Shown: positions 1 through 26,689 of the stretch, one piece after another | How the letters are laid out: each line of letters begins with the position of its first letter | Position numbering within the stretch: the first letter of the stretch is position 1 | DNA from: Myxococcales bacterium | Lineage (GTDB): Bacteria > Myxococcota_A > UBA9042 | Assembly: GCA_037441385.1 (NCBI GenBank) | Contig: JBBISH010000049.1 | Location: 1-41,403, forward strand | Direction of reading: 5' to 3' | Length of the DNA: 41,403 bases | Translations under genes and position numbers: made by a program | The notes under the pieces: model-generated | Told to the model about the DNA's origin: nothing | Seen by the model: only the letters and a program-made list of their open reading frames with translations | Databases searched by the model: none

Positions 1-835
1 CAGTGGCTTTGTCGCAGCTGTCGGTAGTGCACGGCTTACCATCGTCGCAAGTTCCGTTGAGTCCAGCGCATTTTCCGTCCTTGCACACATCGCCGGTCGT
101 GCACGGGTTGCCGTCGTCGCAGGTCGTGCCGGCCGGGGTGTGGACGCAGCCCGACTTGCTGTCGCACGAGTCGGCCGTGCACGGGTTCTTGTCGTCGCAA
201 TCCGGCTTGCCGGCGCCGCCCACGCACTTGAGGCCCTGGCACGCGTCGCCCTGGGTGCACGCGTTGCCGTCGTCGCAGAGCAGGCCCGCCTGGGTTGACC
301 AACTGCACTGACCGGCGCTGCAACTGTCCACGGTGCAAGGGTTGCCGTCATCGCACGAGACGCCACCGCAGATCACACCCACGTCGGGAGTCGTCGCGTC
401 GGCTGTGGTGGTGTCGGGGGCCACGGTGTCGGGCGCAGCGGTGTCGGGAGGGGTGGCATCGGGAGCGGCGGTGTCGGGCATGGCCGTGTCTGGCGCCGTG
501 TCGGCGGGCGCGGTGTCGGGCGTCGCCAACGTGTCCTCGGTGAGCGTATCTTCGCCGCCGCCGACGTCAGTGGCGCCATTGCTGTCGTTGCCTGCGCCGG
601 TGTCCGTACCCTGCGCCGTGTCGTCCGTGCGCGGCTGGGCGTCCGCGTTGCCGGTCGCGTCGTCGGTGCCGCTGGCATCCTCGCCCGTGCTCAGGTCTTG
701 GCCAAGCCCGGTGTCGCTGCCGCCAGCGTTGAAAATGCCGGACCCGGTCGTGTTGCTGGGGTCGTTGCCGCAAGCAGCCAGCGCCAACGCGGCCCAGACA
801 GCGCCAGCCAAAGTCCAATTGAATTGCCCTTTCAT
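1..835 (-). CDS. Cys-rich repeat (CDDGNPCT, Dicty_CTDC-like) lipoprotein; 5' part only, runs off the window
   Basis: Not in the ORF track because it has no stop in the window. ATG at 835 gives MKGQFNWTLAGAVWAALALAAC (lipobox LAAC), then an Asp/Thr/Ala-rich linker and tandem CDDGNPCTxDxC repeats. SD-like AGGTGGGG upstream. Confidence 0.85.
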   Translation of the reverse strand, partial: MKGQFNWTLAGAVWAALALAACGNDPSNTTGSGIFNAGGSDTGLGQDLSTGEDASGTDDATGNADAQPRTDDTAQGTDTGAGNDSNGATDVGGGEDTLTEDTLATPDTAPADTAPDTAMPDTAAPDATPPDTAAPDTVAPDTTTADATTPDVGVICGGVSCDDGNPCTVDSCSAGQCSWSTQAGLLCDDGNACTQGDACQGLKCVGGAGKPDCDDKNPCTADSCDSKSGCVHTPAGTTCDDGNPCTTGDVCKDGKCAGLNGTCDDGKPCTTDSCDKAT

Positions 836-960
836 ACGCACCCCACCTGATTCACGCCTATACGCTTCTTCTGACCCGTTGGGCAACTGGCGAGAATCAG
901 GCGGGGACCCCGGTTCGGGCCGTGAGAATTGCCCGAGTTTTCGATCCGATTCGGACGGAA
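834..960. repeat. 127-bp structured intergenic repeat, copy 1
   Basis: Ungapped alignment to 17202-17328 (14 mismatches by hand count) and to the reverse complement of 26563-26689 (28 mismatches). Internal inverted repeats CTGATTC/GAATCAG, TCGGG/CCCGA, TCCG/CGGA. Confidence 0.95.
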
Positions 961-1050
961 CTGATATCATTTGCGCTCCCGCGCCACGCTGTCCGCGCAC
1001 GCCGATTTCACACCTTATCCAGCCCGCCCAAGTGGCGCAAGCCGAAGTCC

Positions 1051-2094
1051 CTAGCGACATGCGGAGATGGCCTGATCCATGTCCGCGCGCTGCCGCCCGA
1101 TTTGCCGCGCCAGCTGCCATTGATTGCGTGCGCGCACCAAGTTGTGCTCGCCGCGACTGGCAAAACGGCTGGCGTCCCAGCCAAAGTAGCTTTCATTCAG
1201 CGCATCGCAGGCAAAGCGCGCGGCGAGCTCCAGCGCAATGCGCTGCACCGCCGGGACCAAGGCGGCCGTTTCGGCTGGCTGCAGCCACGACGCCACCGCG
1301 GGCAAGTAGCCCTGCATCGCCGACGCAAACAGCCCCTCGTCGAATTGCGGGTTGGGGTCGTCTTCGCGGCCAGGGTTGCACCACGAGCGCATCGCGTCGC
1401 CCAACTCGATGTCCAGACTGGCCCAGCCCATGGTGTCCAGATCGATGACGCCGCACACCGTGTCGCCGGAAAAGAGCAAGTTCGAGACCTTGAGGTCGCC
1501 GTGAATCAGCCGGCGTGGCAACTGCGGCGGGCGGCCCCACGCCTGCCACATCGGCTGTAGATCACGGGCAATCTCAGACACTTCACGGTAGTAGCGGTGA
1601 TCCGCGTGCCGGTCCAGCGCCGCCGCGAGTTTCGCCAAGTGGGCGTCGGTGTCGTGCGCCCCGGGGCGACTGAAGGCAAATTGGTGGCGGCTGTCGCGAA
1701 CGGCGCTGTGGAAGCGGCCAATCATTGCGCCGGCGTGGCGGGCCTGCTCGGCATTCTCTAGGCGGTGGAGCGTCTTGCCGGGCAGCCGCGTCATCACCCG
1801 CCACGCCTCGCCGTCGACCACCAGGCCAGGCTCGCCGGTGTGGGTGGCCACCAACTGGGGCACAGGCACGCCACCTGCGCGCAATTCGGGCAAAAGCGCC
1901 GCGATGTCGGCGTTGACGGCGGGGGCAAAGATAGGATGCAGACGCTGCAGGATGAAGCGGCGTCCCAGGGCATAGGTGGCATTGATGAGTCCACCGGCCA
2001 GGGGCTCCACACGGAGAGTTGTCGCAGGCGCGTGCCCGTCGCCGTCGTCAAGTGGATCGTAGCCGCCCAGAATCTTCAGAAAATCGGTGGACAT
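1051..2094 (-). CDS. Aminoglycoside phosphotransferase (APH) superfamily kinase, N-acetylhexosamine kinase-like
   Basis: GGLINATY N-lobe motif, Brenner motif HGDLKVSN, VIDLDT metal-binding motif; ATG at 2094. Confidence 0.8.
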   Translation of the reverse strand: MSTDFLKILGGYDPLDDGDGHAPATTLRVEPLAGGLINATYALGRRFILQRLHPIFAPAVNADIAALLPELRAGGVPVPQLVATHTGEPGLVVDGEAWRVMTRLPGKTLHRLENAEQARHAGAMIGRFHSAVRDSRHQFAFSRPGAHDTDAHLAKLAAALDRHADHRYYREVSEIARDLQPMWQAWGRPPQLPRRLIHGDLKVSNLLFSGDTVCGVIDLDTMGWASLDIELGDAMRSWCNPGREDDPNPQFDEGLFASAMQGYLPAVASWLQPAETAALVPAVQRIALELAARFACDALNESYFGWDASRFASRGEHNLVRARNQWQLARQIGRQRADMDQAISACR

Positions 2095-2207
2095 GCCGCG
2101 ATCGTACACCGGCCAAGGCCGCGACGGCAATTCGTCCGCGCGGTCGGCGGCTGGATTTTGCAGCCACGTCCTCTACGATCCGGGGCCACTTGGGGGCGAG
2201 GTAGCGC

Positions 2208-2522
2208 ATGCTGTCGGTGATTTTGAGTAGTTGTCCGCCGGACGTGGCCGCCACGCTGGCGCGTGCGCTGATCGAGCGGCGGGTGGCGGCGTGCGTGTCG
2301 GTGCTGGCGGGCGCGCAGTCAACCTACCGATGGCAAGGCGAGGTCCATTGCGACCCCGAGGCGTTGCTCCTGGTCAAAACGCCCAGCGAGCACGTAGAGG
2401 CTTGCATGGCCGCGCTGCGCGACCTGCACCCGTACAGCGTCCCCGAATTGGTCGAGATTCCGGCCGGACGCGTGGGGGCCGACTATTTGGCCTGGGCGCT
2501 CGCCACGACACGCTCAGCGTAG
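2208..2522 (+). CDS. cutA: Divalent-cation tolerance protein CutA
   Basis: LIERRVAACV, STYRWQG, LLLVKT and HPYSVPE motifs; 104 aa; GAGG SD. Confidence 0.93.
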   Translation: MLSVILSSCPPDVAATLARALIERRVAACVSVLAGAQSTYRWQGEVHCDPEALLLVKTPSEHVEACMAALRDLHPYSVPELVEIPAGRVGADYLAWALATTRSA

Positions 2523-2544
2523 GGGCCGGCGCGGGTCGCCGCAG

Positions 2545-4200
2545 CTACGACGCGGGACGCTGCAACACGGTGTCGTGTAGGCAGGTTTCGTCGTCGGTTT
2601 CGGGATAATCCGTTGAGTAGTGCAACCCGCGGCTCTCGCGCCGGGCCAGCGCCGACTCGACGATCAGCAACGCCACCGCCGTAATATTGCGCAGTTCGAT
2701 GAGGTCGGGCGTCAGCAAGAAACGCCAATAGTCTTCGCGCACTTCTTGCTCGATGAGCTGCAGACGCCGCTGGGCGCGCAGCAGGCGCCGATTGCTGCGG
2801 ACGATGCCGACGTAGTTCCACATCAGCCGGCGGATCTCGTCCCAACTCTGTGTAATCACCACCTGTTCGTCGGGATCGCCAGCGGCGCCCGTGTCCCACT
2901 CGGGCACGCGGAGCACGTCGGGGCTGCCCCCCGCGTCGCCCATGCGCTGTTTGGACACGCCGATCGCGGCCGCGGCGGCGCGCTTGCCGAACACCACCGC
3001 TTCCAGCAGCGAGTTCGACGCCAGACGATTGGCGCCGTGCAGGCCCGTGCAACTGACCTCGCCCACGGCAAAAAGCCCGGCAAGGCTGGTCTGGCCCTCG
3101 TGATTGACCAGCACGCCGCCGCACTGGTAGTGGGCCGCAGGTACCACCGGGATCGGCTGCATGCGCATGTCGATGCCCAGCTCCAGGCAGCGGGCGTGGA
3201 TGGTGGGGAAGTGGGCTTCCAGGAACGGCGCCGGCAAGTGCGTCATGTCCAAGAACACGCAGTCGTCGCCTGAGCTTTTGAGCTCGGAGTCGATGGCGCG
3301 GGCCACGACATCGCGCGGCGCCAGCTCTTTGCGCGGGTCGTAGCGGACCATGAAGGCTTCGCCACGGCGGTTGCGCAAGATCCCGCCCTCGCCGCGAAGC
3401 GCCTCAGAGATCAAGAAGTTGCGCTCTGTCGGATGATAGAGACAGGTGGGGTGAAATTGGAAGAACTCCATGTTGGCGATGCGGGCGCCGGCTCGCCACG
3501 CCATCGCCAACCCGTCGCCCGTCGCCACATCGGGGTTGGTCGTGTACAGGTAGGTCTTGCCGGCGCCACCCGTCGCCAGGACCACGGCGTTGGCGGCCAC
3601 GGCCAGAACGCGATTATTCACAATATCCAGAGCATACACGCCCAACACGCGGTCGTTGCGCCCGCCCGGGGTGCCGCGCCCGGTGCCGCGCGCCAACCGG
3701 GCCCGCGTGATGAGGTCGATCGCCTGGCAGTGCTCCAGGACGCGGATGTTGGGATGCGCGCGCACCCGCGCCGCCACGGCTTGCTCGATCGAGGCGCCGG
3801 TGGCGTCGGCGTGGTGGGCGACCCGCCGCGTGGAATGGCCGCCTTCACGCGTCAAGTGCAGCAGCCCGTGGCCATCGCGATCAAAGTGCACGCCCTGAGC
3901 CACCAACCAGTCGATCGCCGCGGGGCCTTCGCGCACCACCAGCTCTACGGTATCGCGACGGCACAGGCCACCGCCAGCGACCAGCGTGTCGCCCAAGTGC
4001 TGATCGAAGGTGTCGTGGCGCGGATCCAGCACCGCCGCGATGCCGCCCTGGGCCCACACGGTGTTGCTCTCGGTCAGGCCGCGCTTGGTCAGCAGCGTCA
4101 CAGAGGCGTGCTCTGCCGCCTCCAGGGCCACGCACAGGCCGCCAATGCCGCTGCCCAGCACGACAATTTCGCTGGTCAGCTGGTTCGACTCGCTCATCAT
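2545..4200 (-). CDS. nadB: L-aspartate oxidase
   Basis: GSGIGG FAD loop, AQGGIAAV, REGGHS, QFHPT, LISEALRGEG, PAAHYQCGG, GLHGANRLASNSLLE, RRESRGLHY; ATG at 4200. Confidence 0.95.
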   Translation of the reverse strand: MMSESNQLTSEIVVLGSGIGGLCVALEAAEHASVTLLTKRGLTESNTVWAQGGIAAVLDPRHDTFDQHLGDTLVAGGGLCRRDTVELVVREGPAAIDWLVAQGVHFDRDGHGLLHLTREGGHSTRRVAHHADATGASIEQAVAARVRAHPNIRVLEHCQAIDLITRARLARGTGRGTPGGRNDRVLGVYALDIVNNRVLAVAANAVVLATGGAGKTYLYTTNPDVATGDGLAMAWRAGARIANMEFFQFHPTCLYHPTERNFLISEALRGEGGILRNRRGEAFMVRYDPRKELAPRDVVARAIDSELKSSGDDCVFLDMTHLPAPFLEAHFPTIHARCLELGIDMRMQPIPVVPAAHYQCGGVLVNHEGQTSLAGLFAVGEVSCTGLHGANRLASNSLLEAVVFGKRAAAAAIGVSKQRMGDAGGSPDVLRVPEWDTGAAGDPDEQVVITQSWDEIRRLMWNYVGIVRSNRRLLRAQRRLQLIEQEVREDYWRFLLTPDLIELRNITAVALLIVESALARRESRGLHYSTDYPETDDETCLHDTVLQRPAS

Positions 4201-4225
4201 GGGGTAACTCTCTGGCTGCCGGCAG

Positions 4226-5047
4226 TCAATTGAGCTGGATCTCGACGCGGAACAGCATGGAACCGCACAGGATCTCGTCGCCTTGCTGTAGCCGGTGCGG
4301 CAGGCGATGCACGCGCACAAAGGTGCCGTTCAAGCTGCCGCTGTCGATCACCTGCAGCAGGCCGCCGTGGCCGATCTCGATGCGCGCGTGGCGCCCACTC
4401 ATGAAACGGTCTTGCGGGAAGCTGAGATCGGCGCCCTCGCGACCGATGGTGATAACGTCGCGGTCCGTGGTGAACACCCTGCCAGGCAGCCCGCCCGCGA
4501 GCAGTTGCGTCACTTGCAGGCGCGGCGGCGGCAACGGAGTGCCAAACGTTTCGCTGGGCTGCTCGCCGGGCGGCCACGGCTCCGAGGCGATGTCCTCGGC
4601 CAGACGGGCCAGGAGGTACTGCTCGCCAGCGAACACGACTTCGCCCGAACGGATCAGGGTAGGCTCGCGCGAGCGGCGGAAGACACCGGTTTCGCCTGGA
4701 ATGTCGACAATGTCCAGCGTTTCCGGGCTGCGGTCGAAAATCACGTGGCGGGCCGCCAGCTGCGGATCCCCGGCAAAGCTCAGGTCGGCCTGGCGCCCCA
4801 AGGTCGAGGTGCCAAACGGCACTTCGCAGGTTGCGCCCTCGGCGCCCGGACCGCGCAACACAACTAGCCGAATTTTAGCCGGTTCTAGCGGGCCAAGCGG
4901 TGCGGGCCCACTGGGGGGCGGCGGGATCGACGGCAAGCCAAGCACCGCCGACGCGCTGGCCGAGCCAAGCACGCCGCCGCATTTGCCGCAAAACTGGAAG
5001 GCCTGTGGCCACGACGCGCCACAAGTGCCGCAGACGATGTTGCCCAT
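4226..5047 (-). CDS. Zinc-ribbon plus tandem FHA domain protein
   Basis: N-terminal CGTC...CGKC. The C-terminal FHA has GR, SGRH and SLNGTF; the first FHA is degenerate (GR...AARH). ATG at 5047. Confidence 0.85.
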   Translation of the reverse strand: MGNIVCGTCGASWPQAFQFCGKCGGVLGSASASAVLGLPSIPPPPSGPAPLGPLEPAKIRLVVLRGPGAEGATCEVPFGTSTLGRQADLSFAGDPQLAARHVIFDRSPETLDIVDIPGETGVFRRSREPTLIRSGEVVFAGEQYLLARLAEDIASEPWPPGEQPSETFGTPLPPPRLQVTQLLAGGLPGRVFTTDRDVITIGREGADLSFPQDRFMSGRHARIEIGHGGLLQVIDSGSLNGTFVRVHRLPHRLQQGDEILCGSMLFRVEIQLN

Positions 5048-5186
5048 CTTGGCCTCGCGCGGGCAGGCGGCCCGCGGCGTGCCGATGGTTCCACAGCCGG
5101 CGAGCCGGTGCAACGCTTTGCCGCGGCCCACCGGCCAAGGTGCAGGGAAATCGTGTTTGGCCCAAGTTGCGGTACACTGCCCGCCC

Positions 5187-7613
5187 ATGGGTGCCGACGG
5201 AGCCAAATCCCCAAGCAAATCCGAGCAGCGAGCGGCGGCCGCCAAGGTGGCGCAGAACGTCCGCAACCCCAGTCGCGGCGCCGAGCCCAAGCGCGGCTGC
5301 CTGAAGCGGCTGCTCGTGTTGATGCTGGGCCTGGCCCTGGGCGGCGCCGGGATCGCCACGGCGGGCTGGCTATGGGTCGACGCGACCTTGCCCGACGTGT
5401 TCTCGCTAGAGGCCTACCGCGGCCTGGCCAAAGAAAGCACGCGCGTCTATGCCGCCGGGGGCGAAGTCGTCGCGCGTTTTGGCGACGAAATTCGCACCGT
5501 AATCGGGCCCGAGCGCATTCCACCCACCGTGCGCTACGCCATGGTCTGCGCCGAGGACTCGGCCTTCTACTCGCACCCAGGCCTGGACGTAGCGGGCATT
5601 GCCCGGGCGCTGTGGGTCGATCTCACGCAAGGCCGCTACGCGCAAGGCGCTTCTACCTTGACGCAGCAGTTCGCCAAGACGCGCTTCCTGGGCCGCGAAA
5701 AGACGTTTACGCGCAAGCTGAAGGAACTGGTGCTGGCCCGCAAGCTGGAAACCCATCTGACCAAAGACGAAATCCTGACGCTCTACCTGAACGAGGTCTA
5801 TTTTGGCCACGGCCGCTACGGCATCGAAGAGGCCGCGCGCTTCTTCTTCGGCCGCTCGGCCAGCGAGCTGGATCTGGCCCAAGCCGCCCTGCTGACTGGA
5901 CTGGTGAACAGCCCATCGCGATTGTCGCCGCTGCAGCACCCCGATCGCGCCAAAGCCCGCCGGACCTACGTGCTGCGGCAAATGCTGGGCCACGGCTACA
6001 TCGCCCAGGCCGACTTTGACCGCGCCGACGCCGCGCCGCTGCCCAGCGTGCCCGCCGAGTCGCTGGGCGTGGGCGGCGACTGGTACCTGGAAGCAGTGCG
6101 CCGGCAGGCCCTGGAGAAGATCGACAAGGCCCAGCTCTACGGCGGCGGCCTGCGCATCGAGATCGCCATGGACGTGGGCCTACAGCAAGCCGCCGAGCAG
6201 GCGGTGCGGCGCGGGCTGCAGAGTATCGACGCGCGCTACAAGGTCGCAACGCCGCTCAAGCACTACGATGATCCGGCCTCGCTGCAGGCGGGTCTGGCCA
6301 AGCTGACGGCGCAACAGGGCGACCACCCCGCGGCTGGGCGCGTGCTGCTGGGGGTCGTGCAAGAATTCGACGCCACCGCCAAGGCGTACGACATCAATTT
6401 GGGCAGTCTTACCGGCACGTTGGCGGCGTCCGATCTCGAGCGGTACCGCGCGGTGGCCGATGCCGCCAAGGGCGAGTCGCAGGGGGCGGCGGTGAGCCTG
6501 AAGGCGGGCGACCTGATCCGCGTGTCGTTGCGCGAGAACACCCCCAAAGGTTGGACGCTGTCGCCGGAATTTGGCCCGCAGGCGGCCCTGGTGGCGATCG
6601 ATCCCAAGACGCGGCTGGTGCGAGCGCTGGTGGGCGGCGACGACTTTGATCTGCACCCCTACGATCGCACGCGAGCGCTGAGGCAGCCGGGATCGACCTT
6701 CAAGACCTTTACCTATGGCGCCGCCATCGAAGCGGGCCTGGTCACGCCCGATACCGAGCGCGTCGACGCCGCGGTCGCCTATCCCGTGGGCAGCAAGAGC
6801 TGGACACCTCGCAACTTTTCCGGTTCGTACGACGGCAAGTCCCACACCCTGCGCGATGCCCTGGCCCAGTCGATCAACTCGATCGCCGTAGCGGTGGCCC
6901 AGCAGGTTGGCCCCGAGCAGGTGGCCAAGTTCGCGGAGCGCATGGGAATTCACAGCCCGCTCACCCCGGGGCTGCCGCTGGCGCTGGGCGCAAGCTCGGT
7001 GACGCTGCTCGAGCTGACCAACGCCTATGCCACCATCGCCGCCGACGGCCGCCTCGCCGAGCCGATCCTGATCACCCGCATCGTCGACCGAACTGGCAAA
7101 GATCTGGTCCTGGCGCCGCGCGAGCCCGGCCAGATCGTTGCCGGCGAAAACGTGATGCGGCAACTGACCGACATGCTGGGCGAAGTGGTGCGGCGCGGTT
7201 CGGGCAAAGAGGCGCAGAACGCGGGCCGACCGGTGGTGGGCAAGACTGGCACCAGCAACGCCAGCCGCGATACCTGGTTTGTGGGATTTTCTGCGGACTT
7301 GTGCGCCGGCGTGTGGGTCGGCTACGACGATCGCAAAGAGATGCCCAAAGCCACGGGCGGCATGCTGGCCGTGCCCATCTGGACGCAATTCTTCAAGCAG
7401 GGGCTGGCGGCTGTGCCGGTGCACCCGCTGCCGCGCTTGCCGCACATCATGGCGGGCGCGGTGGCCAACTTGCCTGGCCCGGCGGTGGATGCAGAGGCGG
7501 GGGCCGCGGACTTGGACGACGCGGAACTAGCGCCCGATCAGCCGCTGGCGGCGCCCGCCGATTTGCCCAAGCGTCGCGGTGAAGTGCCCGTCGACGACGA
7601 GGCCATCCAGTAG
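5187..7613 (+). CDS. mrcA: Penicillin-binding protein 1A (transglycosylase/transpeptidase)
   Basis: TM anchor; GT motifs EDSAFYSHPG, GASTLTQQ, RKLKE; TP motifs STFK, SIN, KTG. Start placed at ATG 5187 because the upstream extension overlaps the FHA gene. Confidence 0.92.
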   Translation: MGADGAKSPSKSEQRAAAAKVAQNVRNPSRGAEPKRGCLKRLLVLMLGLALGGAGIATAGWLWVDATLPDVFSLEAYRGLAKESTRVYAAGGEVVARFGDEIRTVIGPERIPPTVRYAMVCAEDSAFYSHPGLDVAGIARALWVDLTQGRYAQGASTLTQQFAKTRFLGREKTFTRKLKELVLARKLETHLTKDEILTLYLNEVYFGHGRYGIEEAARFFFGRSASELDLAQAALLTGLVNSPSRLSPLQHPDRAKARRTYVLRQMLGHGYIAQADFDRADAAPLPSVPAESLGVGGDWYLEAVRRQALEKIDKAQLYGGGLRIEIAMDVGLQQAAEQAVRRGLQSIDARYKVATPLKHYDDPASLQAGLAKLTAQQGDHPAAGRVLLGVVQEFDATAKAYDINLGSLTGTLAASDLERYRAVADAAKGESQGAAVSLKAGDLIRVSLRENTPKGWTLSPEFGPQAALVAIDPKTRLVRALVGGDDFDLHPYDRTRALRQPGSTFKTFTYGAAIEAGLVTPDTERVDAAVAYPVGSKSWTPRNFSGSYDGKSHTLRDALAQSINSIAVAVAQQVGPEQVAKFAERMGIHSPLTPGLPLALGASSVTLLELTNAYATIAADGRLAEPILITRIVDRTGKDLVLAPREPGQIVAGENVMRQLTDMLGEVVRRGSGKEAQNAGRPVVGKTGTSNASRDTWFVGFSADLCAGVWVGYDDRKEMPKATGGMLAVPIWTQFFKQGLAAVPVHPLPRLPHIMAGAVANLPGPAVDAEAGAADLDDAELAPDQPLAAPADLPKRRGEVPVDDEAIQ

Positions 7614-7665
7614 GCGAGCGCCGTGGGCTTCAGGTGATCAGCACAAATAGGCCTTCGTGCTTACC

Positions 7666-7704
7666 GCCGCGATTCGTCCGCCCCAAAGGCGGCGAATTTG
7701 CGGC
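7666..7704. terminator. GC-rich hairpin between convergent mrcA and mrp; possible bidirectional terminator
   Basis: GCCGC-GATTCG-T-CCGCC [CCAAA] GGCGG-CGAATT-T-GCGGC; no clear U-tract. Confidence 0.4.
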
Positions 7705-7751
7705 CCACCCAGCAGGAGAGGCGAGGCGGAAACACATTTCCGCTGATCGCC

Positions 7752-8648: not shown

Positions 8649-8711
8649 CGGGTCTCCAGGTCTGGCCGGTGGGCCAGCGGCGAGGCCTTGTAGGCAGCCT
8701 GCAAAGCGCTG

Positions 8712-8972: not shown

Positions 8973-9159
8973 CGACTCCTCCGCGGTGGGGATCGGCGGC
9001 ACGGTTCGCCCGGCCACAGGTGTGGACGCACAAGGAGGCGCCGCGATCTGTGTCGGTTTGTGGGTGGGCCCCCATCGACCGGCAGACGACCATTCTTGAA
9101 AGTCTTGGTCGGGCGTGACACTCTGATTCTGGGCGACAGGAGGAGGCGGGGCGACGGCA

Positions 9160-17114: not shown

Positions 17115-17201
17115 GGGTTCCAAGGGCGGGTCTCGCCGGCAAATGGTGCGCCAAGAGGGCAGAGGGCCCGATCGCAGCCGCGATCGAGCCCCCCACAGGT
17201 A

Positions 17202-17328
17202 ATACGAACCCCATCTGATTCGCGCCTGTACGGCTTTTCTGACCCGTTGTGCAACTGGCGAGAATCAGGCGGGGACCCCGGTTCGGGCCCGAGGAATTAC
17301 CCGAGTTTTCGATCCGACTCGGACGGAA
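17202..17328. repeat. 127-bp structured intergenic repeat, copy 2
   Basis: About 89% identical to copy 1, same orientation; ends 6 bp before the decaheme gene stop codon. Confidence 0.95.
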
Positions 17329-17334
17329 TTGGCG

Positions 17335-20300
17335 TCACTTATGGCAAGTCACGCAGCTCTCGGCCTCGTCGCCGCTCCAGGGGTCGGCGGGCGTGGGATC
17401 GTAGGTCTGCGCGGCAAAGTGCGCCTGCGCGGACAGCGAATCGTGGCAGCCCCAGCAGGCCAGGCGGTTGGGCTTGTTTGCCCAGGTGCCGCTGGTGGTG
17501 TTGGCGGTGTGACACAGCTCGCAAGTGCGCACGTCAGCAGGCAGTTTGATGTCCCAATTGCGGCCGGCGTCGGGATCGCCGTTCGCATACCACACCGTCT
17601 GCAGCGGGAAGTTCAGCGCCGAGCCGTTGTGGATGGCGTGGACACGCCGCGAAATCGGGTGGCTGCCCTGCCAACCCTGGTTCAGCACGGTGTTGCTCAG
17701 ATCCTTTGGATTCTGCGGTTGGTAGTCGTGGCACGCGCCGCACTGATCCAAGGCCTGGTCGCGCAAGATCTTGTTGTGGCGGGCTGGGTCGAGAACCAGG
17801 CCCACGCCGTTGCCATTCTGGTGGCAGGTCTGGCAGTTGCGGGCAACCGGCAGCTCTTCGGTGCTCTGCTTCACCGTGAAGTTGAAGAACGCGACGCTGG
17901 GGGTGACGTAGTTGTCGCCGTCGACGCGATAGCGGTCGCCGATTTCGACGCTGACGGTGTAGGTGCCGGCCGGCAGATCGTCGACGGGGTCGAGTTGGTA
18001 GGTGACCTTGTCGGCGGTGCGGGTGACCTTGGGGTCGTCGATGGCGCCTGCGGCGGTGCGCTTGGCCAACACGTTCGAGGCTGTGCTGGAGTTGGTGCCC
18101 GTCGCGGTCACGTTGCCACCGAACACCAGGGTATTGAACGTGCTGGCAGCGAACTGCACCGAGAACACCCGGCCCAGGTTGCGGCTGCGGATCGCGAACT
18201 TGCCCGTCGCCTCGTCGATGTAGGCGATACCGCGCGCCTTGAAGGCGGCGTTGGCGTTGAAGGCCGCGACCAATTCCGCAGCCGTGACGGCAGCTTTGTT
18301 GGCATACGCCGAAGCAGCCAGGGCGACCGTGGCCACACCGGCGACCGGCTTGTCGCCACCGGTGGCGTCAAAGGCCACGAGCGGCTGGCCCGCGTCGAAC
18401 GTGACGGTCAGGGTCGGCGCCGAGTCGGAGGTCAGGTCCCACGGGCCGACGGTGTTCGACAGGATCTTGGCCCGGGCGGCCATGGTCAGAGCCGGCGAGC
18501 GGTAGGCGCGCGGGCCATGGACAAAGAAGCCCGAGTCGCCGAACTTGCCGTTGGGCGTCTGACAGGTGGCCGGCGGCAGGGTCGTGGGCGCGGTGCCCGT
18601 CCAGCAACCCTCGGCCGCGCCTTCGATCATGGTGGTGTGGTCGATGGCTTTGCCGGTCTTGGCGTCCTTGAGAACGACGGTGACGACGGGCGCGTCGCCC
18701 GCCTCGTAGTAGGTCTTACCGCTCTTGGGCGCCGACATCGACAGTTCGATGTTGAACTCGGGAACGTTGCGCGGGTCTTTGCCTTCGATGGCGTGGGCTT
18801 CGATCACGCCCAGGCCAAAGCCACCTTCGTCGTGGCAAACCATGCACTTGTTGTCGGTGGCCTGAGCGCCGCCCTTGTGGCCCACGCCGGTGGCGAAATC
18901 GACGGTGTCGTGGCAAGAGCCGCAAGCGGCGCGCGACGGAACTTTCCACGCGTCGACGTTGGCGCCGCTGCCGCTGTGGCACTTGGTGCAATTGCCCAAC
19001 TCCGCCGGGAAGCCGGCCTTGTACCAGCTCACCTTGGCATTGCCGTAGCCCCACAGCGCATAGGCGCTGGCGAGCGGGCCGTTGTCCTTGCTCTCGTCCG
19101 CGGCGGTGCCGGTGTTGTTCCAGAACTGGCGGTCGGGGCCGCCGATGCTGGGAAGCTGACCACCGGCGTGGATCTTGTGGATCATCACCTTGGCGTCCAG
19201 GCTCTGCTTGCTCTGCGCGTCGAATGTCGACGGGTTGTGGCAGGTGACGCAGTTCTCGATCGACAGGCGATCGCCGCCATGGCCCTTGAACTGCGGGCCG
19301 TGGCAGGCCTGGCATGCCGCGGTGTTCACGATGTTCTTGGTGGCGGGCAGCTTGGTGATCGTGGTGTCGGGCACAAAGTCAAAGACGGCGTCGGCGGTGG
19401 GGCCGGCGTGTCCGCCCGTCATGATGCTGACGCGGTGGGTCAACTTGCGGTCGTAGCCGACCAACGCGCTGCCGGCCTTGCCGTCAACGGTGGCCTTGGC
19501 CAGATTGGTCACGAATTCATAGGTGTAGGTGCCATCGTTGTTGTTGGTGAGGAGGCCGGTGGTGGTGCTGCTGCCGCTGGACTCGCGGTAGGCCTGCACC
19601 GCCGTGTCGCCGTCTTTGGCCGGCCAGGGATCCTTGGCTGTCGCCGAGCCGGACACGGTCTCGATGCGGTAGATGTAGTTGACCCACTTGGTGAACGCTT
19701 CGCCCGCGGTGGCGTCGGGGCCGGCCAGCTTGGCGATGTTGGCCGTGACGGCCGCGACCGTCTTGACCGGCTTGCCGGCGGTGTCGTCGACCTTGAACTT
19801 GACGGTGACCTTGCCGGCTTCGTCGGCGGTGGCGGCGGTGATGGTCATGACCGCGTCGCTCTTGCCGGCGGTGGCGTATTCGCCGCTGGTCTGCAGGTGG
19901 GCCAGACCGTGGAAATTGGTGATGCCCGCGCCGCTGCCGTTGGCGCCGGCGGGACCCACGGGGCCGGTGGGACCCGTGGCGCCGTCTTTGACGGTGACCG
20001 TGGTGCCATCGGTGCAGGTGATCGTCTTGCTGCCGTTGCCATTGTCCTTGACGGTGCAGCTGTTGCCGTCTTTGCCCGGCGCGCCCGTGTCGCCGGTGGT
20101 GCCGGTCGCGCCTTGCGGGCCCGGTTCGCCGGTGGCGCCCGTGGCACCCTGCGGTCCGGCCACGCCTTGGTCGCCCTGGTTGCCGGTGGCGCCATCCTTG
20201 ATGACGACCGAGGTGCCGTCGCTGCACGAAACCGTCTTGGTGCCGTCGGTATTGTCCTTGACCGTGCAGGTAGTGCCGTCTTTGCCAGCGGCGCCGTCCT

Positions 20301-20637
20301 TGCCGTCTTTGCCGTCTTTGCCGGCCGTGCCGTTCTGGCCGTTCTGGACCGTCACGGCGGTGCCGTCGGGGCAGGTGATGGTCTTGGTGCCGTCGCCATT
20401 GTCCTTGGCGGTGCAGTCCGAGCCGTCTTTGCCGGCCTTGCCGTCCGCGATCTTGACCTCGGTGGTGCCACAGGTGATGGTCTTGGTGCCATCGCCGTTG
20501 TCTTTGATCGAGCAAGTCGCGCCCGAAGCGCCCGCGGCGCCTTTTTCGCCTTGAGCGCCCTCGCAAGCCAGCATCATGCTGCCCGCGGCGAGCAGGAGGA
20601 GGGTACGCGAATTCACCGCGCGCAGAATCTGTTGCAT
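17335..20637 (-). CDS. OmcA/MtrC-family decaheme c-type cytochrome lipoprotein with N-terminal collagen-like stalk
   Basis: Lipobox MMLAC; GAGGTG SD. Ten CxxCH motifs (CQACH, CVTCH, CTKCH, CGSCH, CMVCH, CQTCH, CGACH, CELCH, CWGCH, CVTCH) in two groups of five separated by a beta-rich domain. MIHKIH and DGTYTYEF motifs. Confidence 0.92.
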   Translation of the reverse strand: MQQILRAVNSRTLLLLAAGSMMLACEGAQGEKGAAGASGATCSIKDNGDGTKTITCGTTEVKIADGKAGKDGSDCTAKDNGDGTKTITCPDGTAVTVQNGQNGTAGKDGKDGKDGAAGKDGTTCTVKDNTDGTKTVSCSDGTSVVIKDGATGNQGDQGVAGPQGATGATGEPGPQGATGTTGDTGAPGKDGNSCTVKDNGNGSKTITCTDGTTVTVKDGATGPTGPVGPAGANGSGAGITNFHGLAHLQTSGEYATAGKSDAVMTITAATADEAGKVTVKFKVDDTAGKPVKTVAAVTANIAKLAGPDATAGEAFTKWVNYIYRIETVSGSATAKDPWPAKDGDTAVQAYRESSGSSTTTGLLTNNNDGTYTYEFVTNLAKATVDGKAGSALVGYDRKLTHRVSIMTGGHAGPTADAVFDFVPDTTITKLPATKNIVNTAACQACHGPQFKGHGGDRLSIENCVTCHNPSTFDAQSKQSLDAKVMIHKIHAGGQLPSIGGPDRQFWNNTGTAADESKDNGPLASAYALWGYGNAKVSWYKAGFPAELGNCTKCHSGSGANVDAWKVPSRAACGSCHDTVDFATGVGHKGGAQATDNKCMVCHDEGGFGLGVIEAHAIEGKDPRNVPEFNIELSMSAPKSGKTYYEAGDAPVVTVVLKDAKTGKAIDHTTMIEGAAEGCWTGTAPTTLPPATCQTPNGKFGDSGFFVHGPRAYRSPALTMAARAKILSNTVGPWDLTSDSAPTLTVTFDAGQPLVAFDATGGDKPVAGVATVALAASAYANKAAVTAAELVAAFNANAAFKARGIAYIDEATGKFAIRSRNLGRVFSVQFAASTFNTLVFGGNVTATGTNSSTASNVLAKRTAAGAIDDPKVTRTADKVTYQLDPVDDLPAGTYTVSVEIGDRYRVDGDNYVTPSVAFFNFTVKQSTEELPVARNCQTCHQNGNGVGLVLDPARHNKILRDQALDQCGACHDYQPQNPKDLSNTVLNQGWQGSHPISRRVHAIHNGSALNFPLQTVWYANGDPDAGRNWDIKLPADVRTCELCHTANTTSGTWANKPNRLACWGCHDSLSAQAHFAAQTYDPTPADPWSGDEAESCVTCHK

Positions 20638-20896
20638 GAGGTCACCTCGTGGTTTTCGCCCGATAGTCCGCAGCGGGCGGTGCGGCGTTGGCGGCACGAC
20701 ACGGGGCAGAAGTGCTCGTTTGGCAAGCGTCGGCCACCCCGTAGGCGTAGCATAACTGGCGGTGGGCGCTCGAGACAGCCAAGGCGTTGCGGGGAACGGC
20801 CAGAATAGCGCTGCTATATTGAGGTGTTTTACTATTCAGCCAGCTGTCCGATTGCAATGGCGTGACCGCCGTTGCACTTCGGTGACGAAGCAGGGC

Positions 20897-23800
20897 CTAG
20901 CGAGCGCGGCGCACCGCGGGCGAAAGGAGCGCCTGCGTGCTGCGAATTTGCGCGGGCTGGCCACCCTGGGGCGCCGTGCGCACCGTGATCTCGGGGATGG
21001 TCACCGAGCACCACTCGGCAGGGTCGTGCACGTGGCGGATCGCCACCACGCCCGGCGCGTGACCGCCCGTCAAGCCCTCGATCCACAGCGTCATGGTGCG
21101 GCTGCCACGGAAGGGCACGGCGATGATCTGCATCTTGGCGCTGCCCATGGACTGTTGGCCGTAGATGAGCTGGCCCTTGTAGTCCGACAGGGCGTCTTCG
21201 GTCTGGCGGATCGCCACCGTAGCCGGCACGGCCACTAGCGCGTAGTACTCGAGCGGGTCCTTGTCGGCGTCGAGCTCGATGCGCAGCTGCGATTGCTGCC
21301 CTACAGCCAATTCGGCGTGTTCCACAGCGACCTTGGCAAAGCGCTTTTCGCTGGCGGCGCGCAGGTCCACGGTGCCCGGGCGGTCGATGCGGGCCATGCC
21401 GCCGCGGGGCAACGCTAGGTCCGCCGCCTGCGAAATCGCCACTACTTCGCCCAGTTTCACCACCACGGTCTTGCCGCCCATGTTCAGCTTGACGGTGCCC
21501 TGCTCGGCCGGGCGGGCGCCCATCATGAGCAGCAGATCGATGAAGCGCGGCAACGCGGCCGGTTGGCTGTACACGCCCCCCAGGAGCGCCGGCCCCTGCA
21601 ACATCCCAGGCTCTTGGCTCAGCACCATGCCGCGCGCGATGACGGCAAACAGCTTGTCAAAGGTGGGCTTGCCCGCCTCGCCCGCCGCCCAAGCCGCCTT
21701 GGCCTGGCCCATGAGCCACTGCAGCTTGCCCACGCGCTCAAAGGCACGCAGGAAGCGGAAGGTATCCAGGGCCTTGCCCAACGCCACCGGGTCGCCGCCG
21801 TCCAGATCACCCAGTGCGGGCCCCAATTTGTCCACGGCAAAGCGCTGCACGGCATCGTCGGTCACCGTGCGGAAGAGGACGTGGCCGTCCACCTCGACCT
21901 CGACGACCTCGAGTCCGTCCTGGGTCTCGTCGTAGCCGGCGACTTCGCTTGGCTTCTGCTTGCGGGCGGCAAAGCCCTGATCCAAGTGCTTGGCCAACGC
22001 GTCCAAGCGCTTGCAGGCATCGGGAGCCTGATTGCACAGGCCGGGCGCGTACTTGACTGCCCTGCGCGCGATCTGCAGGTTGCTCGCGACCCACGCCGTC
22101 CAGCGCGGGCTGGGCGCCATGTTGGTCCACGGCCGCATTTGTTGGCTGCCAGCGTCGTACAAGGCGTCGAGCTGAGTCATCGCGTGATCGAAGCCGCTCG
22201 AGAGCTGTTGACGATAGCCGTCGTCTTTCAGCAGGTTGCGATCGATGGCCGCCATGAGGGTGACGCGCGTGGCCACCTGGGCCGACAGAGCCTCGGCGTG
22301 CGGGAACCACGACTCCATGGTGGTGACGACGTTGCTGACGATCCCTTGCATGAGCGGCCCAGGCCCGCCGTAAACAACCAACTTTTCGCCAGGTTGTACG
22401 CTGATGCGGCCACTGCCGCCCACTTCGAGCCGCGACCAGGTCACCGGCTGCCGCGCCACGTCGGCCACGGACAGCTTGCGCCGGTCATGGGTCTGCCCTG
22501 CATCGTCGACCAGTGCGAGGTCGATGGTGCCGGGCACCGCCGGCCAGGCAATCAGCTGCGTCTGAACACCAGAGGCCACGGGCCGTTGCACCGGGGCCGC
22601 GAAGCCCGCGCCCGACAGGTGCAAGAACATCGGCCGCTGCTGCTGATTGTGCGTCACCACGCGCAGTTCCAGCTCGCCGCCCGCGACGATCGCCCGCGGG
22701 GCCTGCGCCTCGACCCACGCCTGCCGCGCCAGGTCCGTCTGCGCCTCTGCCGTGACCCAAGCCATGTCACGCACGGGTGTCCAGCGCAGCCCCAGGCGAC
22801 CGGTCTGCGGCGGCGTGGGCACTTGCACGCTGACCTTGCCGTTGGCATCGGTGCGAACCACCGCCACAAACGTGACCTTGATCTCGCCCTCGCGCACCAC
22901 TTCGCCCTCTTCCTCGCCCGCGTCCTCGTCGCTTCCATTGGGCGGCGGCGGGGCAGCGGACGGGCGCGCCATCCGCGGCGAAGCGGCCTTCATTTCCATG
23001 GCCATCGCCTTGGGCGCGCCCCCCCCGCTCGCATAGCCATAGCCACGCCCGTAGCCAGCGGAAGCGCCATCTTTCTTGGCCTTGGCCGCGTCGCGGGCCG
23101 CCTGCCGTTCGGCCTCGCGCTCGCGCTTTTCTTCTTCGCGGGCGCGACGTTCTTCTTCCTTGCGCTGACGCTCCAGCTCCGCTGGGTCCACCCAGCCGTC
23201 CAAGTGGCGCCCGGCGTTGCGCAGGCTGTCGCCCACGGCGGAATTCAGAGGCCCAGCCGGGTCTTTGGCGGCGACGCGGATGTCGTACGCCTCTAGGATG
23301 CCTGCCACCGCCAGGGGCCGGCCGGCGCGGTCCTGCGCTTGCAGTTGCACGGTCACTTCGCTGTTGGGGCGCGCCTTTTCGGGCACCAAGATCTTGGCCT
23401 GCACGTCGGGCGGCGGGAACGCGAAGGCATAGCCCTCGACAAAGTGCCCTTTGCTGGGGCCGTTCTGCGCCACACCGCCCACACTGACCAGCGCCGGAGC
23501 GTTGCCGACCCCAATCTGCAGCACCGTACCTGCAGAGGCCTTGCTAGCGATTTCTACATGTTGCGCCACGTAGCCGCCGTTCTTGTCGGCCTTCCAAACC
23601 ATCGCCACGGCATGATGCAGGTCGTGCCGCACGGTCACGGCCAACTGCCCGCCATCGGCCACCAAGCTCGCGACCTCAAAGGAGTCTTGCTCCGAAGTGC
23701 CGCCCGACCGCACGGTCCACAGCGCCCGACCGGGCAGTTGCTGGGTACCCTCGTAGGGGGCCAGGGTGACTTGGTGCGCGTAACGCACGCCCTTGCTGAC

Positions 23801-24685
23801 CGGAATGAGCTCGCGCTCGACGTGCCCCGAGCCTTCGAACTGATAGCGCAAGCTACCTTGCGGGGTGATGACCTCGATCTGGAACGGGCCCGAGTGGCCG
23901 CCGATCGAAATGGTGCCGGCCAATTCGCCACCGCGCACTTGCAGCTTTTGCCGCGGCCCGGCGACCACGCCATTGCAGCCCGACAGCATGCAACGCGGGA
24001 TCACCTCGACCTCGCCGTCGTACGGCTGGTTGTCGACGCGCAGTTGGTTCTTGAACGACAGCCCGTTGCCCCAGCGCTGGCCCACGCCCGCGGCGTTGCC
24101 CAGGAACCAACCAGCCTTGACCTTTTCGAGCTGTTCGGCCGCGGTCAGGCGCTCAAAGCTGTAGGCAAACGACAGGGCGCCCAGCTGGCCTTCGACCACC
24201 GCAAAAGTGGTCGAAGTCTTGATTTTGCCGTCAGCAGTCGCCAGGTCGACGCGGTACTCGCCCAGGTCCAGCTTTTGCGCGCGGCCGTCTTGCAGCTGCA
24301 CCACCGCCAAACCGGCATCGTCCAAGACCACGTCGACGTCGCGGGGTGTACCGTCGCGCTTGGCCCAACTGAGTTTGCACTTGGAGCCACCGCGGCCGGG
24401 CAGCAGCAGGCGCGCGCGCACAACTTCGTCGGGCCAGAACTGCGGCTGATCCATCGTCAACGAGGCGAGTTGCAGCGCCATGTGCGGCGCAAGGTGGCTA
24501 GCCACCCCCAAGACGTGGTCCGACTTGTCGACCTGGAACAGGCGCGTGTCGCGGGCATCGGGTGCCGCGCTGCCGCCGTCGCGGCCGACCAGGGCGACGA
24601 GCAGGCCCAGCGCCGCGGTCAAAAGCGTCAGGGCAGTGGGGCGAGAACGGCGCGGCGCAGCGGAAAGAGCCAGAGCGGATTGCAT
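20897..24685 (-). CDS. Alpha-2-macroglobulin-like exported protein
   Basis: MG2-like MDQPQFWPDEVV, A2M-like RTDANGKVSVQVPTP and APRAIVAGG motifs, low-complexity bait-like region; GAGG SD before ATG 24685. Confidence 0.7.
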   Translation of the reverse strand: MQSALALSAAPRRSRPTALTLLTAALGLLVALVGRDGGSAAPDARDTRLFQVDKSDHVLGVASHLAPHMALQLASLTMDQPQFWPDEVVRARLLLPGRGGSKCKLSWAKRDGTPRDVDVVLDDAGLAVVQLQDGRAQKLDLGEYRVDLATADGKIKTSTTFAVVEGQLGALSFAYSFERLTAAEQLEKVKAGWFLGNAAGVGQRWGNGLSFKNQLRVDNQPYDGEVEVIPRCMLSGCNGVVAGPRQKLQVRGGELAGTISIGGHSGPFQIEVITPQGSLRYQFEGSGHVERELIPVSKGVRYAHQVTLAPYEGTQQLPGRALWTVRSGGTSEQDSFEVASLVADGGQLAVTVRHDLHHAVAMVWKADKNGGYVAQHVEIASKASAGTVLQIGVGNAPALVSVGGVAQNGPSKGHFVEGYAFAFPPPDVQAKILVPEKARPNSEVTVQLQAQDRAGRPLAVAGILEAYDIRVAAKDPAGPLNSAVGDSLRNAGRHLDGWVDPAELERQRKEEERRAREEEKREREAERQAARDAAKAKKDGASAGYGRGYGYASGGGAPKAMAMEMKAASPRMARPSAAPPPPNGSDEDAGEEEGEVVREGEIKVTFVAVVRTDANGKVSVQVPTPPQTGRLGLRWTPVRDMAWVTAEAQTDLARQAWVEAQAPRAIVAGGELELRVVTHNQQQRPMFLHLSGAGFAAPVQRPVASGVQTQLIAWPAVPGTIDLALVDDAGQTHDRRKLSVADVARQPVTWSRLEVGGSGRISVQPGEKLVVYGGPGPLMQGIVSNVVTTMESWFPHAEALSAQVATRVTLMAAIDRNLLKDDGYRQQLSSGFDHAMTQLDALYDAGSQQMRPWTNMAPSPRWTAWVASNLQIARRAVKYAPGLCNQAPDACKRLDALAKHLDQGFAARKQKPSEVAGYDETQDGLEVVEVEVDGHVLFRTVTDDAVQRFAVDKLGPALGDLDGGDPVALGKALDTFRFLRAFERVGKLQWLMGQAKAAWAAGEAGKPTFDKLFAVIARGMVLSQEPGMLQGPALLGGVYSQPAALPRFIDLLLMMGARPAEQGTVKLNMGGKTVVVKLGEVVAISQAADLALPRGGMARIDRPGTVDLRAASEKRFAKVAVEHAELAVGQQSQLRIELDADKDPLEYYALVAVPATVAIRQTEDALSDYKGQLIYGQQSMGSAKMQIIAVPFRGSRTMTLWIEGLTGGHAPGVVAIRHVHDPAEWCSVTIPEITVRTAPQGGQPAQIRSTQALLSPAVRRAR

Positions 24686-24741
24686 GGTGACCTCGCAGAA
24701 AGACAACGACAGACCTTGGACGGGCAGCAGCCGCGGACGAT

Positions 24742-25086
24742 CTACTCGGAGGGCCCGCGGGGCTTGTCCTCGGTGACGGCGATGACCCGCTCGACGACGT
24801 GGCCCACTTGGCGCTTGCCGCCTGCGGCTGGCCGAATTCCGACCAGCTCCGGGCCCAGCGCCCCCTTGCCGGCGGCGGCGCGGCCCATGGCGCGCATGAC
24901 CTCGTAAGCCTCTGTCCGGTCAACGCATTCTTGGCAACTCAACACTTGACTGGCCGGCGCACTGTAGACCAAGTTGCCGTCCTTGAACAGGCGAACCGCG
25001 GCGGCGTCGCGCTGCAGCTCGTCGGCGTCGACCCCGCAGACGGTCGCGGAAAATCGCTGGCGAACTCGAAGAACCCACACCGGCAT
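24742..25086 (-). CDS. Hypothetical protein
   Basis: Fills the gap between co-directional genes; protein-like composition. Confidence 0.55.
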   Translation of the reverse strand: MPVWVLRVRQRFSATVCGVDADELQRDAAAVRLFKDGNLVYSAPASQVLSCQECVDRTEAYEVMRAMGRAAAGKGALGPELVGIRPAAGGKRQVGHVVERVIAVTEDKPRGPSE

Positions 25087-25107
25087 GGCGGCCTGCTTGG
25101 TTGGGGT

Positions 25108-25482
25108 CTACTTGTCGTGCGCAACGGGCAACCCCGCCGCCGTCCAAGCCTTCCAGCCGCCGTCCAGCGAGATCACCGCGGTGTAGCCCATCCTTTGCAG
25201 CGAGTCGGCGGCCAGGGCCGAGCGATAGCCGCCGCCGCAATAGAGCACCAAAGTGGCCGTCTTGTCTGGGAAACGCCCGATCGCGTCGCGCTCGATCACC
25301 CCGCGACCCAAGTGCTGGGCGCCGGGGATGTGGCCGTCCAGCCACTCGCGGTCCTCGCGGACGTCGACCACCTGAACCGGTTTGCCGCTTGCCTGCAGGG
25401 CCTGCAATCCGGCCAAGTCGATCTCGGTGACCTGGGCCTTGCTGGCTTGAACGAGCGCCAGAAACTCGGGCGAGTGCTGCAC
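25108..25482 (-). CDS. Single-domain rhodanese (sulfurtransferase)
   Basis: AAGGAG SD before GTG 25482; DVRE, GHIPGA, CGGGYRS, LDGGWKAW. Confidence 0.92.
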   Translation of the reverse strand: MQHSPEFLALVQASKAQVTEIDLAGLQALQASGKPVQVVDVREDREWLDGHIPGAQHLGRGVIERDAIGRFPDKTATLVLYCGGGYRSALAADSLQRMGYTAVISLDGGWKAWTAAGLPVAHDK

Positions 25483-25523
25483 GGGAACTCCTTGCGGCTC
25501 CGGTCGGGGCCGCTGCCACGGAT

Positions 25524-25718
25524 CTAGAAGCGCATGCCCCACTTGGCGCGGAACATGAACCACCGCCACGTGAGCCACGAGGCCACGCCCGCGGCCACCA
25601 GCGTGAGCAGCAGTGAGTGCACCAGAAAGAACGCTGCGCCACCGCCGGCCCAACCCAGCACCGCCATCCAGCCCAGGCGGGCAGCCTCGGCCCGCTGTTT
25701 TGGCAACAACTCTCCCAT
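25524..25718 (-). CDS. Small two-TM membrane protein
   Basis: AAGGAG SD; starts 2 bp after the upstream stop; two hydrophobic helices and a basic C-terminus (RAKWGMRF). Confidence 0.7.
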   Translation of the reverse strand: MGELLPKQRAEAARLGWMAVLGWAGGGAAFFLVHSLLLTLVAAGVASWLTWRWFMFRAKWGMRF

Positions 25719-25720
25719 CG

Positions 25721-26557
25721 CTACTTCTCCTTGGCAGGCCCGTCGGTGATCGACAACTCCAACCGATACTGCCCTGGTTCTGTGGTGGCCGGCAAGCGCA
25801 GCTTCTGCACCACGGCCAACCAGCAGGCGGTCCAGGGCGTGTGGGACAACGGCAACAGCAGGCGCGGCACGCCCACGATTCGGCCTGCCTTGATGTCGAC
25901 GGCAAATGCCGCCTGCAAGTCTTCGCCCTCCTTGGCCAATTCAATACAGCGCCGCAGCTTGGACTGGGCGCGCCCAAGGGCCGCGTCGACCTCGGGCGGT
26001 ACGTGCGGCAGCTCGGGCTCGGCTGGCGGCGTCGGCGCGACCGATGGCGGCGCCACCGGCTCGGGGGGCGGCACGGGCTGCGGAGTCGGCGCGACCCGGC
26101 CGGGCGGCGCTGGCCGGCGCGGTGGACTGCCCGGCAGCAGTTCGTCCTCGGTCACGAACTCGCGCAACACCTGGTTGATCGCGTCGCGCGCCGGCAGGGG
26201 CAATTCAGAGGCCAGATCAAAGGCCGCCCGCCGCATCGGGCCCAGCGCGCCGCTGTTGGCCACAGCCGAGATGACCACGGTCCAAAACAGCAGGCTCCAG
26301 AAACAGCCAAAGCCGCCTTTGGTTTTCTTACCTTGCACGGCCATAGCCGCGGGTCGCTGGGCGCGGCGGTTGGGGGCACTGGGCCCGGCGGCCACTGGGG
26401 GAACGGTTACGCTGCCGCCAGCCGCGCGGGCCATTTGGTCAAAGTCGATCGGATCGACGCCCAGCAGCACGGCGCCGCATTGCTCGCAGTTGGTGCGGGC
26501 GCGCGCGTTGCGTGCCTGACAGCGCGGACAGCGGCGGTCGCCTTGGTTTGCCATCAT
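25721..26557 (-). CDS. Zinc-ribbon/TM/Pro-rich protein with AgmX/PglI (TonB-C-like) C-terminal domain
   Basis: CPRC...CEQC, one TM helix, Pro-rich linker, LRRC...TAC...LRLP C-terminal pattern. Start at 26557 or 26554; 26713 is possible. Confidence 0.7.
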   Translation of the reverse strand: MMANQGDRRCPRCQARNARARTNCEQCGAVLLGVDPIDFDQMARAAGGSVTVPPVAAGPSAPNRRAQRPAAMAVQGKKTKGGFGCFWSLLFWTVVISAVANSGALGPMRRAAFDLASELPLPARDAINQVLREFVTEDELLPGSPPRRPAPPGRVAPTPQPVPPPEPVAPPSVAPTPPAEPELPHVPPEVDAALGRAQSKLRRCIELAKEGEDLQAAFAVDIKAGRIVGVPRLLLPLSHTPWTACWLAVVQKLRLPATTEPGQYRLELSITDGPAKEK

Positions 26558-26562
26558 CCAAA

Positions 26563-26689
26563 TTCCGTCCGAGCCGGATCGAGGGCTCGGGCCATTCTTC
26601 GAGCCCGAACCGGGATCCCCGCCTGATTCTGGCTGGTTGCATACCGGGCCAGAGGAAATGTACCGGCGCGAATCAGCTAGGGTGCATGT
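26563..26689. repeat. 127-bp structured intergenic repeat, copy 3 (inverted)
   Basis: Reverse complement aligns without gaps to copies 1 and 2 (28 and 26 mismatches). Confidence 0.93.

Follow-up and report, generated by a model that had tools for sequence, protein, structure and literature searches.

Several families of short bacterial repeats are known that measure 100-200 bp, reach high copy number in intergenic DNA, carry terminal inverted repeats (TIRs) with a target duplication, and form stable hairpins with occasional in-frame fusions; the accessible part of one account describes them for RUP of Streptococcus pneumoniae (IS630-Spn1), the Correia/NEMIS elements of Neisseria, and ERIC/RU-1, and ties RUP to an enzyme of the IS630 family of insertion sequences (IS) (PMC2229807). 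In this study we focus on a repeat with the same set of features, found in three copies in a stretch of 41,403 nucleotides from a Myxococcales bacterium (assembly GCA_037441385.1, contig JBBISH010000049.1, positions 1 to 41,403), the whole of which is called the window below. The repeat is a miniature inverted-repeat transposable element (MITE) of 132 bp. RUP, Correia and ERIC carry TA at their termini as far as that source covers them (PMC2229807), whereas the MITE duplicates TNA, is GC-rich, and has no sequence in common with those that were tested.

The ISAli3-like subgroup of IS630, which includes ISAli3 of Azospirillum and elements of Acaryochloris and Microvirga, resembles the MITE in having TAC...GTA ends, often TACCA, and a 3-bp TNA duplication with any middle base. 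The MITE departs from these elements in lacking a transposase gene and in having less perfect TIRs, and it agrees with those compared over only the first 7-10 of 12 terminal bases. We think it probable that this non-autonomous MITE, which inserts at TNA and duplicates it, is moved in trans by an ISAli3-like IS630 DDE transposase that was not found in the assembly.

An earlier note on this DNA had aligned the three window copies, without gaps, as a 127-bp unit with 14, 28 and 26 mismatches. We recovered exactly these counts over 127 bases; the unit itself has to be redrawn, for it is 132 bp long, starting 1 base later and ending 6 bases further on, and its true ends, TIRs and TNA duplication had been overlooked. 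Across 173 ungapped copies the conserved block reads T-N-A-T-A-C ... G-T-A-T-N-A, with random sequence beyond, which gives a layout of TAC...GTA over 132 bp with the 3-bp TNA target duplication outside. Intact TAC and GTA ends are present in 100 copies. In 85 of these the two flanks have the same middle base in TNA, in 2 their middle bases are complementary, and in 63 the flanking triplets are identical; in 10,000 shuffles equal middle bases averaged 28 (maximum 45) and identical triplets 20 (maximum 35). The TIRs are about 19 bp long and imperfect, with a closer inverted match in an older subfamily, and a profile of the left end also recovers the right ends. Together, the TIRs, the TNA duplication and the true ends settle the class of the repeat.

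Copy 1 lies at 835..966 on the plus strand, with a right end 1 base off the consensus and TCA duplications at 832..834 and 967..969 (both plus). Its left TIR (835..853, plus; about 19 bp, imperfect) doubles as the left arm of a long internal inverted repeat, stem 1 (841..906, plus), which is bracketed by two short direct repeats, and its right TIR is at 948..966 (minus). The left TCA overlaps, on the minus strand, the called start codon of gene 2-835, the A of which is the terminal base of the element. Copy 2 (17203..17334, plus) is flanked by TAA at 17200-17202 on its left and by TCA at 17335-17337 on its right; these triplets differ, so that there is no exact duplication, and the right one is, on the minus strand, the TGA stop of an MtrC/OmcA-like multiheme cytochrome gene (17335-20637, minus). 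Copy 3 (26557..26688, minus) is more diverged and has TGA on the minus strand on both sides, the left one at 26689..26691 and the right one at 26554..26556, at the start codon(s) of the gene ending at 25721. As had been claimed, each copy sits between two co-directional minus-strand genes, here by our own gene caller, and both orientations are present; an APH-family phosphotransferase gene also adjoins copy 1.

A profile built from the three window copies gave 411 matches at E<=0.01 in the host assembly (G000; 6.6 Mb, 67% GC, 91% complete), and a refined profile gave 437 non-overlapping matches, 286 of them full length and 219 exactly 132 bp. In one DNA run the summed contig depth was about 7,000 on the MITE against about 15 beside it, in rough agreement with a high copy number; this run may come from the source sample. 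Among 107 genomes of the class, the profile matched the host, an assembly of the same genus (G007; 81% complete) and, with one copy, G001. A TIR pattern matched only the host among the 107 genomes; a right-end pattern had no match in the contigs of other genomes, and a core pattern hit 7 loci of one metagenome-assembled genome, which was not counted as a further genome. The 286 full copies, the narrow range and the lack of an Rfam match bear out the first proposal of a lineage-specific, high-copy MITE-like element.

None of the three window sites holds the element in the congeneric assembly: the site of copy 1 is empty, at that of copy 2 both triplets stand 5 bases apart with no element between them, and at that of copy 3 there is a 135-bp gap. 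Moreover, the surroundings of copies 1 and 2 were compared with 16 loci from relatives, none of which holds a MITE copy. In the reverse test, 17 distinct copies from relatives were considered, 11 of which have an orthologous site in the host; the length difference is 134-135 bp at 6 of these 11, including two where the host has a clean single TGA, and ranges from -15 to 153 bp at the other 5. For 29 of the 126 host copies with an exact duplication, a paralogous sequence spans the junction, in some cases a clean empty site in another repeat and in others the element itself. The contigs of three DNA runs contained no joint skipping copy 1 or copy 2 among the joints listed, which is uninformative on rare empty alleles.

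The neighbours of IS5-related loci in metagenomes, which often start with TNA-TAC, lead to the IS630 subgroup. Locus L213 is a complete 1,153-bp element, TCA-TAC...GTA-TCA, whose open reading frames (ORFs) match HTH_33 and DDE_3, and OrfB of the related loci L209 and L230 scores above the NCBIfam IS630 cut-off. Four of eight annotated plasmid records of relatives read TNA-TAC...GTA-TNA with equal triplets (ISAli3 twice, with TGA and TTA; Acaryochloris; Microvirga). Among 30 IS630 loci examined from the class of the host, two relics (G021 and G023, from the family of the host) are those on the branch with TAC-type elements; their TAC ends match 8-10 of the first 12 MITE-end bases, the best match being that of G021 with 10. 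In a tree of 29 IS630 rows, built without 12 class matches that were short or partial, all 8 TAC-ended proteins fall on one branch of 11 rows with support 91/90. The assignment of the MITE to IS630 is thus likely, as judged from sequence comparison. Such a transposase would bind both TIRs and cut the MITE out; the excised MITE would then be inserted at a TNA target cut with a stagger of 3 bases. Filling of the gaps would create the duplication, and the copy number would rise as the donor site is repaired.

Several points weigh against this assignment. IS630 is described, in the accessible part of the source, as duplicating TA (PMC13565253), so that the link to the MITE rests on a subgroup; indeed the canonical TA duplication is not seen here, the MITE duplicating TNA and its empty sites carrying one TNA. 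Nor are TAC ends universal in the subgroup: among the remaining plasmid records, one has the right end only and three of the eight have other ends, and the approximately unbiased test rejects a clade of TAC-ended elements alone (p-AU 0.03), as three other-ended elements nest inside the branch. The match of the MITE to IS630 ends is confined to the 7-10 bases given above, and the exact duplication is kept in only 126 of the 286 full copies, window copy 2 being one without it. No IS630 transposase was found in the host (where multi-copy IS are collapsed at contig ends) or in G007, at 91% and 81% completeness, and none of the IS630 elements compared has both MITE TIRs in full; the parent would thus be lost or unassembled, and the assignment stays at likely. 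Finally, an IS5 element that also uses TNA is present in the host and has recently multiplied there.

Other searches for a parent in the host yielded none. DDE_3 had no match, an ISAzo13 transposase search had none either in the host or in any control genome and is therefore uninformative, and a scan for lone MITE ends around an ORF found none among the matches listed. Pairs of the form TNA-TAC...GTA-TNA spaced 50-3,000 bp were only the 132-bp and 65-bp forms of the MITE and pairs of copies. Two host elements with DDE_Tnp_1 matches were tried as parent and rejected, as they have other ends.

The resident IS5-family element, which we presumptively label IS1031 and for which the data indicate the IS5 family only (NF033580, PF13586 below cut-off on a 57-aa fragment), raises the question of whether its transposase, or a lost relative of that enzyme, moves the MITE. 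The IS1031 group of IS5 has a TNA target and shares the genome with the MITE, and a TNA duplication is what an IS1031-derived MITE would be expected to have. In the host, copies of the IS5 element have collapsed at contig ends, where 8 left ends and 8 right ends can be counted, each of the 16 followed by TNA; pairing them by triplet gives about 8-9 insertions, nearly identical. Six of the 16 ends abut the right end of a MITE and share its TNA, and none abuts a left end (6 vs 0, p 0.03). These junctions, seen in the assembly alone, are at the ends of contigs C84, C98, C146, C149, C156 and C216 (L056, L075, L106-L109). Furthermore, the IS5 element and the MITE both occur at one TGA hotspot within a third repeat.

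The ends of the two elements speak the other way. The IS5 TIR begins with GAG and agrees with a MITE end at only 4 of the first 12 bases; a TIR pair was detectable in 38 of 79 IS5-related loci, and 38 of 38 start with GAG and none with TAC. The IS5 element was, moreover, not found in the 81%-complete G007, which has the MITE. A similar half-site profile of IS5 (9 of 10 sites) is confounded, many of the half-sites being likely the outer flanks of the MITE itself, and we did not use it as support. We consider movement by an IS5-family enzyme unlikely; the IS5 element acts like a neighbour, inserting next to the MITE, and not like its parent.

Concerning the hotspot itself, a single TGA in a CTAG-ended repeat was hit independently several times by the MITE and once by the IS5 element; the loci in the host are C36:22032, C179:8253, C193:3037, C34:21890, C5:14642 and C13:2353. 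One CTAG-ended repeat family of the host resembles the ends of an IS1182-like element on C209.

The six abutted MITE copies differ from one another and have four different triplets. MITE right ends make up about 1.5% of non-coding TNA sites, yet took 6 of the about 8-9 IS5 insertions, an enrichment with a p of about 1e-9 to 1e-7. Since the IS is nearly uniform and one copy that hosts it is old, the IS5 element likely came second, after the MITE. Related IS5 elements in metagenome loci repeat the pattern: 22 of 103 distinct junctions abut TNA-TAC, against a background of 1.4%, with 19 distinct neighbours. These loci are not independent species, many coming from IS-rich genomes, and 7 of the 22 TNA-TAC neighbours carry an IS630 motif in the sequence available, some belonging to other families. 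In G003 and G008, IS5 ends abut other repeats of about 130 bp; L110 (G008, 2789-3632) and L111 (G003, 541-1849) are defective IS5 elements that have repeats of about 130-140 bp with other ends on both sides and TAA/TTA flanks. On the unrelated metagenome contig L224, an 89-bp MITE with TAC-type IS630 ends is wedged between two IS5 ends.

A comparable case is Bru-RS1/IS711 of Brucella, where, in the accessible part of the account, a palindromic repeat of about 100 bp is the putative insertion site of an IS5-family element (PMC3163539). IS711 duplicates TA at YTAR in the Bru-RS1 region (same partial source), whereas here the TNA used by IS5 is precisely the duplicated one at the MITE's right end. 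We consider it nearly as likely as not that IS5 elements of the IS1031-like kind seek out the ends of IS630 elements of the TAC type and of their MITEs. The IS5 enzyme would read an extended target or the DNA shape of the end, and the MITE would serve as a dispersed sink, sparing genes from insertion of the IS. A preference for an extended sequence would account for the adjacency as well as recognition of shape or of a protein would.

The earlier note had also placed the repeat near REP and REPIN elements, moved as single strands. PATEs are hairpin-rich, multi-copy and intergenic, and are tied to HUH tyrosine transposases. To our knowledge, HUH insertion makes no target duplication. REPINs and TIRtrons, as described in the accessible part of the source, are likewise hairpin-rich, multi-copy and intergenic, as is the MITE, and unlike the MITE they too are tied to these enzymes (PMC3733652). 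That the MITE is a REP/REPIN, PATE or TIRtron moved via its hairpins by a Y1 tyrosine transposase would agree with its folding as DNA, which beats that of shuffled sequence in a consensus-like copy (z -4.3 and -4.5), and with the presence of 6 Y1 transposases in the host and 10 in G007. The 3-bp duplication and the TIRs are contrary to such an insertion, none of the 12 Y1 loci examined (of 16 matches) holds or adjoins a MITE copy, and common variants of the MITE break its subterminal hairpins. Empty sites with a single TNA largely refute the HUH origin, which we hold to be very improbable, and the REP/REPIN-like label is not supported.

The hairpins might alternatively belong to a structured RNA or an mRNA-processing element, native or co-opted, that acts on neighbour genes, and there is a precedent in Neisseria, where MITE hairpins affect mRNAs according to the accessible part of the source (PMC2229807). 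The RNA folding z is about -2.9 for the consensus-like copy, and the window copies range from -1.3 to -2.9. Variation is lower in paired than in unpaired columns (13.6 vs 23.8 mismatches, p 2e-4) because of stem 1, whose left arm is the TIR: over 202 distinct copies the mean number of mismatches per column is 8.6 in stem 1, 20.3 in stem 2, 17.2 in stem 3 and 23.8 in unpaired columns. The claim that conservation is highest in the stems thus stands for the long stem 1 only and fails for stems 2 and 3, in which common variants break pairs in 38-49 copies.

Covariation is lacking. No two-sided change was seen at any of 20 predicted pairs in 27 copies, and at none of 30 pairs do more than 3 of 202 copies have a two-sided Watson-Crick change. 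The change of GG:TT to GG:CC in copy 3, which the earlier note had pointed out, is rare in the family, C being present in 5% of 173 copies at each of the two positions, and does not amount to covariation. Rfam gave 0 matches in the window at E<=1, with two chance-level matches on copy 1 far below the cut-off. Insertion sites are not common to genomes, and no promoter- or terminator-like site was found around copy 2. With no Rfam match and no covariation, the repeat is a MITE and not a structured RNA or a REPIN; an RNA function is very unlikely, and the mild orientation bias within co-directional gaps (79 vs 54, p 0.04) is the further point in its favour. The hairpins of the MITE probably arose incidentally, from an internal copy of the TIR, and not through selection for an RNA fold.

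A 65-bp deletion form is present in 35 copies and is without the 67 bp between the two short direct repeats that bracket stem 1. The nearest neighbour of these short copies is a long copy in 20 cases and a short copy in 7, with 8 ties; as it is mostly a long copy, the short form likely arose by repeated deletion in place, going by sequence similarity.

Placement was examined against the 4,638 genes of the host assembly called by our own gene caller. Most of the full copies, 201 of 286, lie in intergenic DNA. In 62 a flank triplet coincides with a called stop codon, against just 0-4 copies when the offset is shifted; a further 19 overlap the end of a gene, and the last 4 are located within a called gene. 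TGA or TAA stops account for 53 of the 286 copies, against 10.9% expected (p 9e-5), and the last A of the element rebuilds an ATG in 11 copies. Convergent gaps are enriched (64 vs 31 expected) and divergent gaps depleted (43 vs 67 expected). Co-directional gaps, in which the three window copies lie, are not special genome-wide (133 of 240 copies vs 142 expected). The four copies in called genes (C145:6269, C67:9663, C17:40524 and C10:47743) share one open frame of the minus strand of the element, which adds 45 residues. Random insertion at TNA followed by purifying selection would produce such a pattern: copies would survive where they do little harm, in convergent gaps, at TGA/TAA stop codons and at ATGA starts rebuilt by the terminal A, and rarely in frame, 135 bp being 45 codons.

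The host holds at least four other multi-copy families of short repeats, often nested, for example at C1:75568-75925, C14:60976-61325 and C111:16825-17350. In the window itself, 39688-39814 and 41277-41403 are a 127-bp duplication, 98% identical, that reaches the contig end, and 40112-40228 and 40974-41090 are two diverged repeats of about 117 bp that end in a common motif seen at several contig ends. The multiheme cytochrome beside copy 2 has an N-terminal collagen-like repeat region. Genes 26802-29726 and 2-835 (minus) encode cysteine-rich Dictyostelium-type repeat proteins, the long one ending in an FGE-sulfatase-like domain, and 31315-39595 (minus) contains Fe-S cluster assembly genes (Rrf2, IscS, IscU, IscA, a DnaJ-domain protein, Hsp70), then a radical SAM gene and E1 dehydrogenase subunits.

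The literature that was searched gives no account of this MITE family, of IS630 elements that duplicate TNA or of IS1031-IS630 adjacency; ISfinder, most subscription journals and supplements were outside its scope, and MITE catalogues in supplements may list the family. The attribution of the MITE to IS630, at the strength given above, and the landing-pad pattern of IS5 are what is new here.

The repeat is ordinary selfish DNA and not a new RNA or REP family. A TNA duplication alone is misleading: TNA repeats with TAC ends likely belong with the IS630 subgroup and not with IS5/IS1031, and the layout of TAC ends plus TNA gives an attribution rule for similar repeats. Moreover, the preference of IS5 for one end of the MITE offers a simple setting in which to test how one transposon family chooses another as its target, and such a landing-pad preference would matter for how insertion sequences avoid genes.

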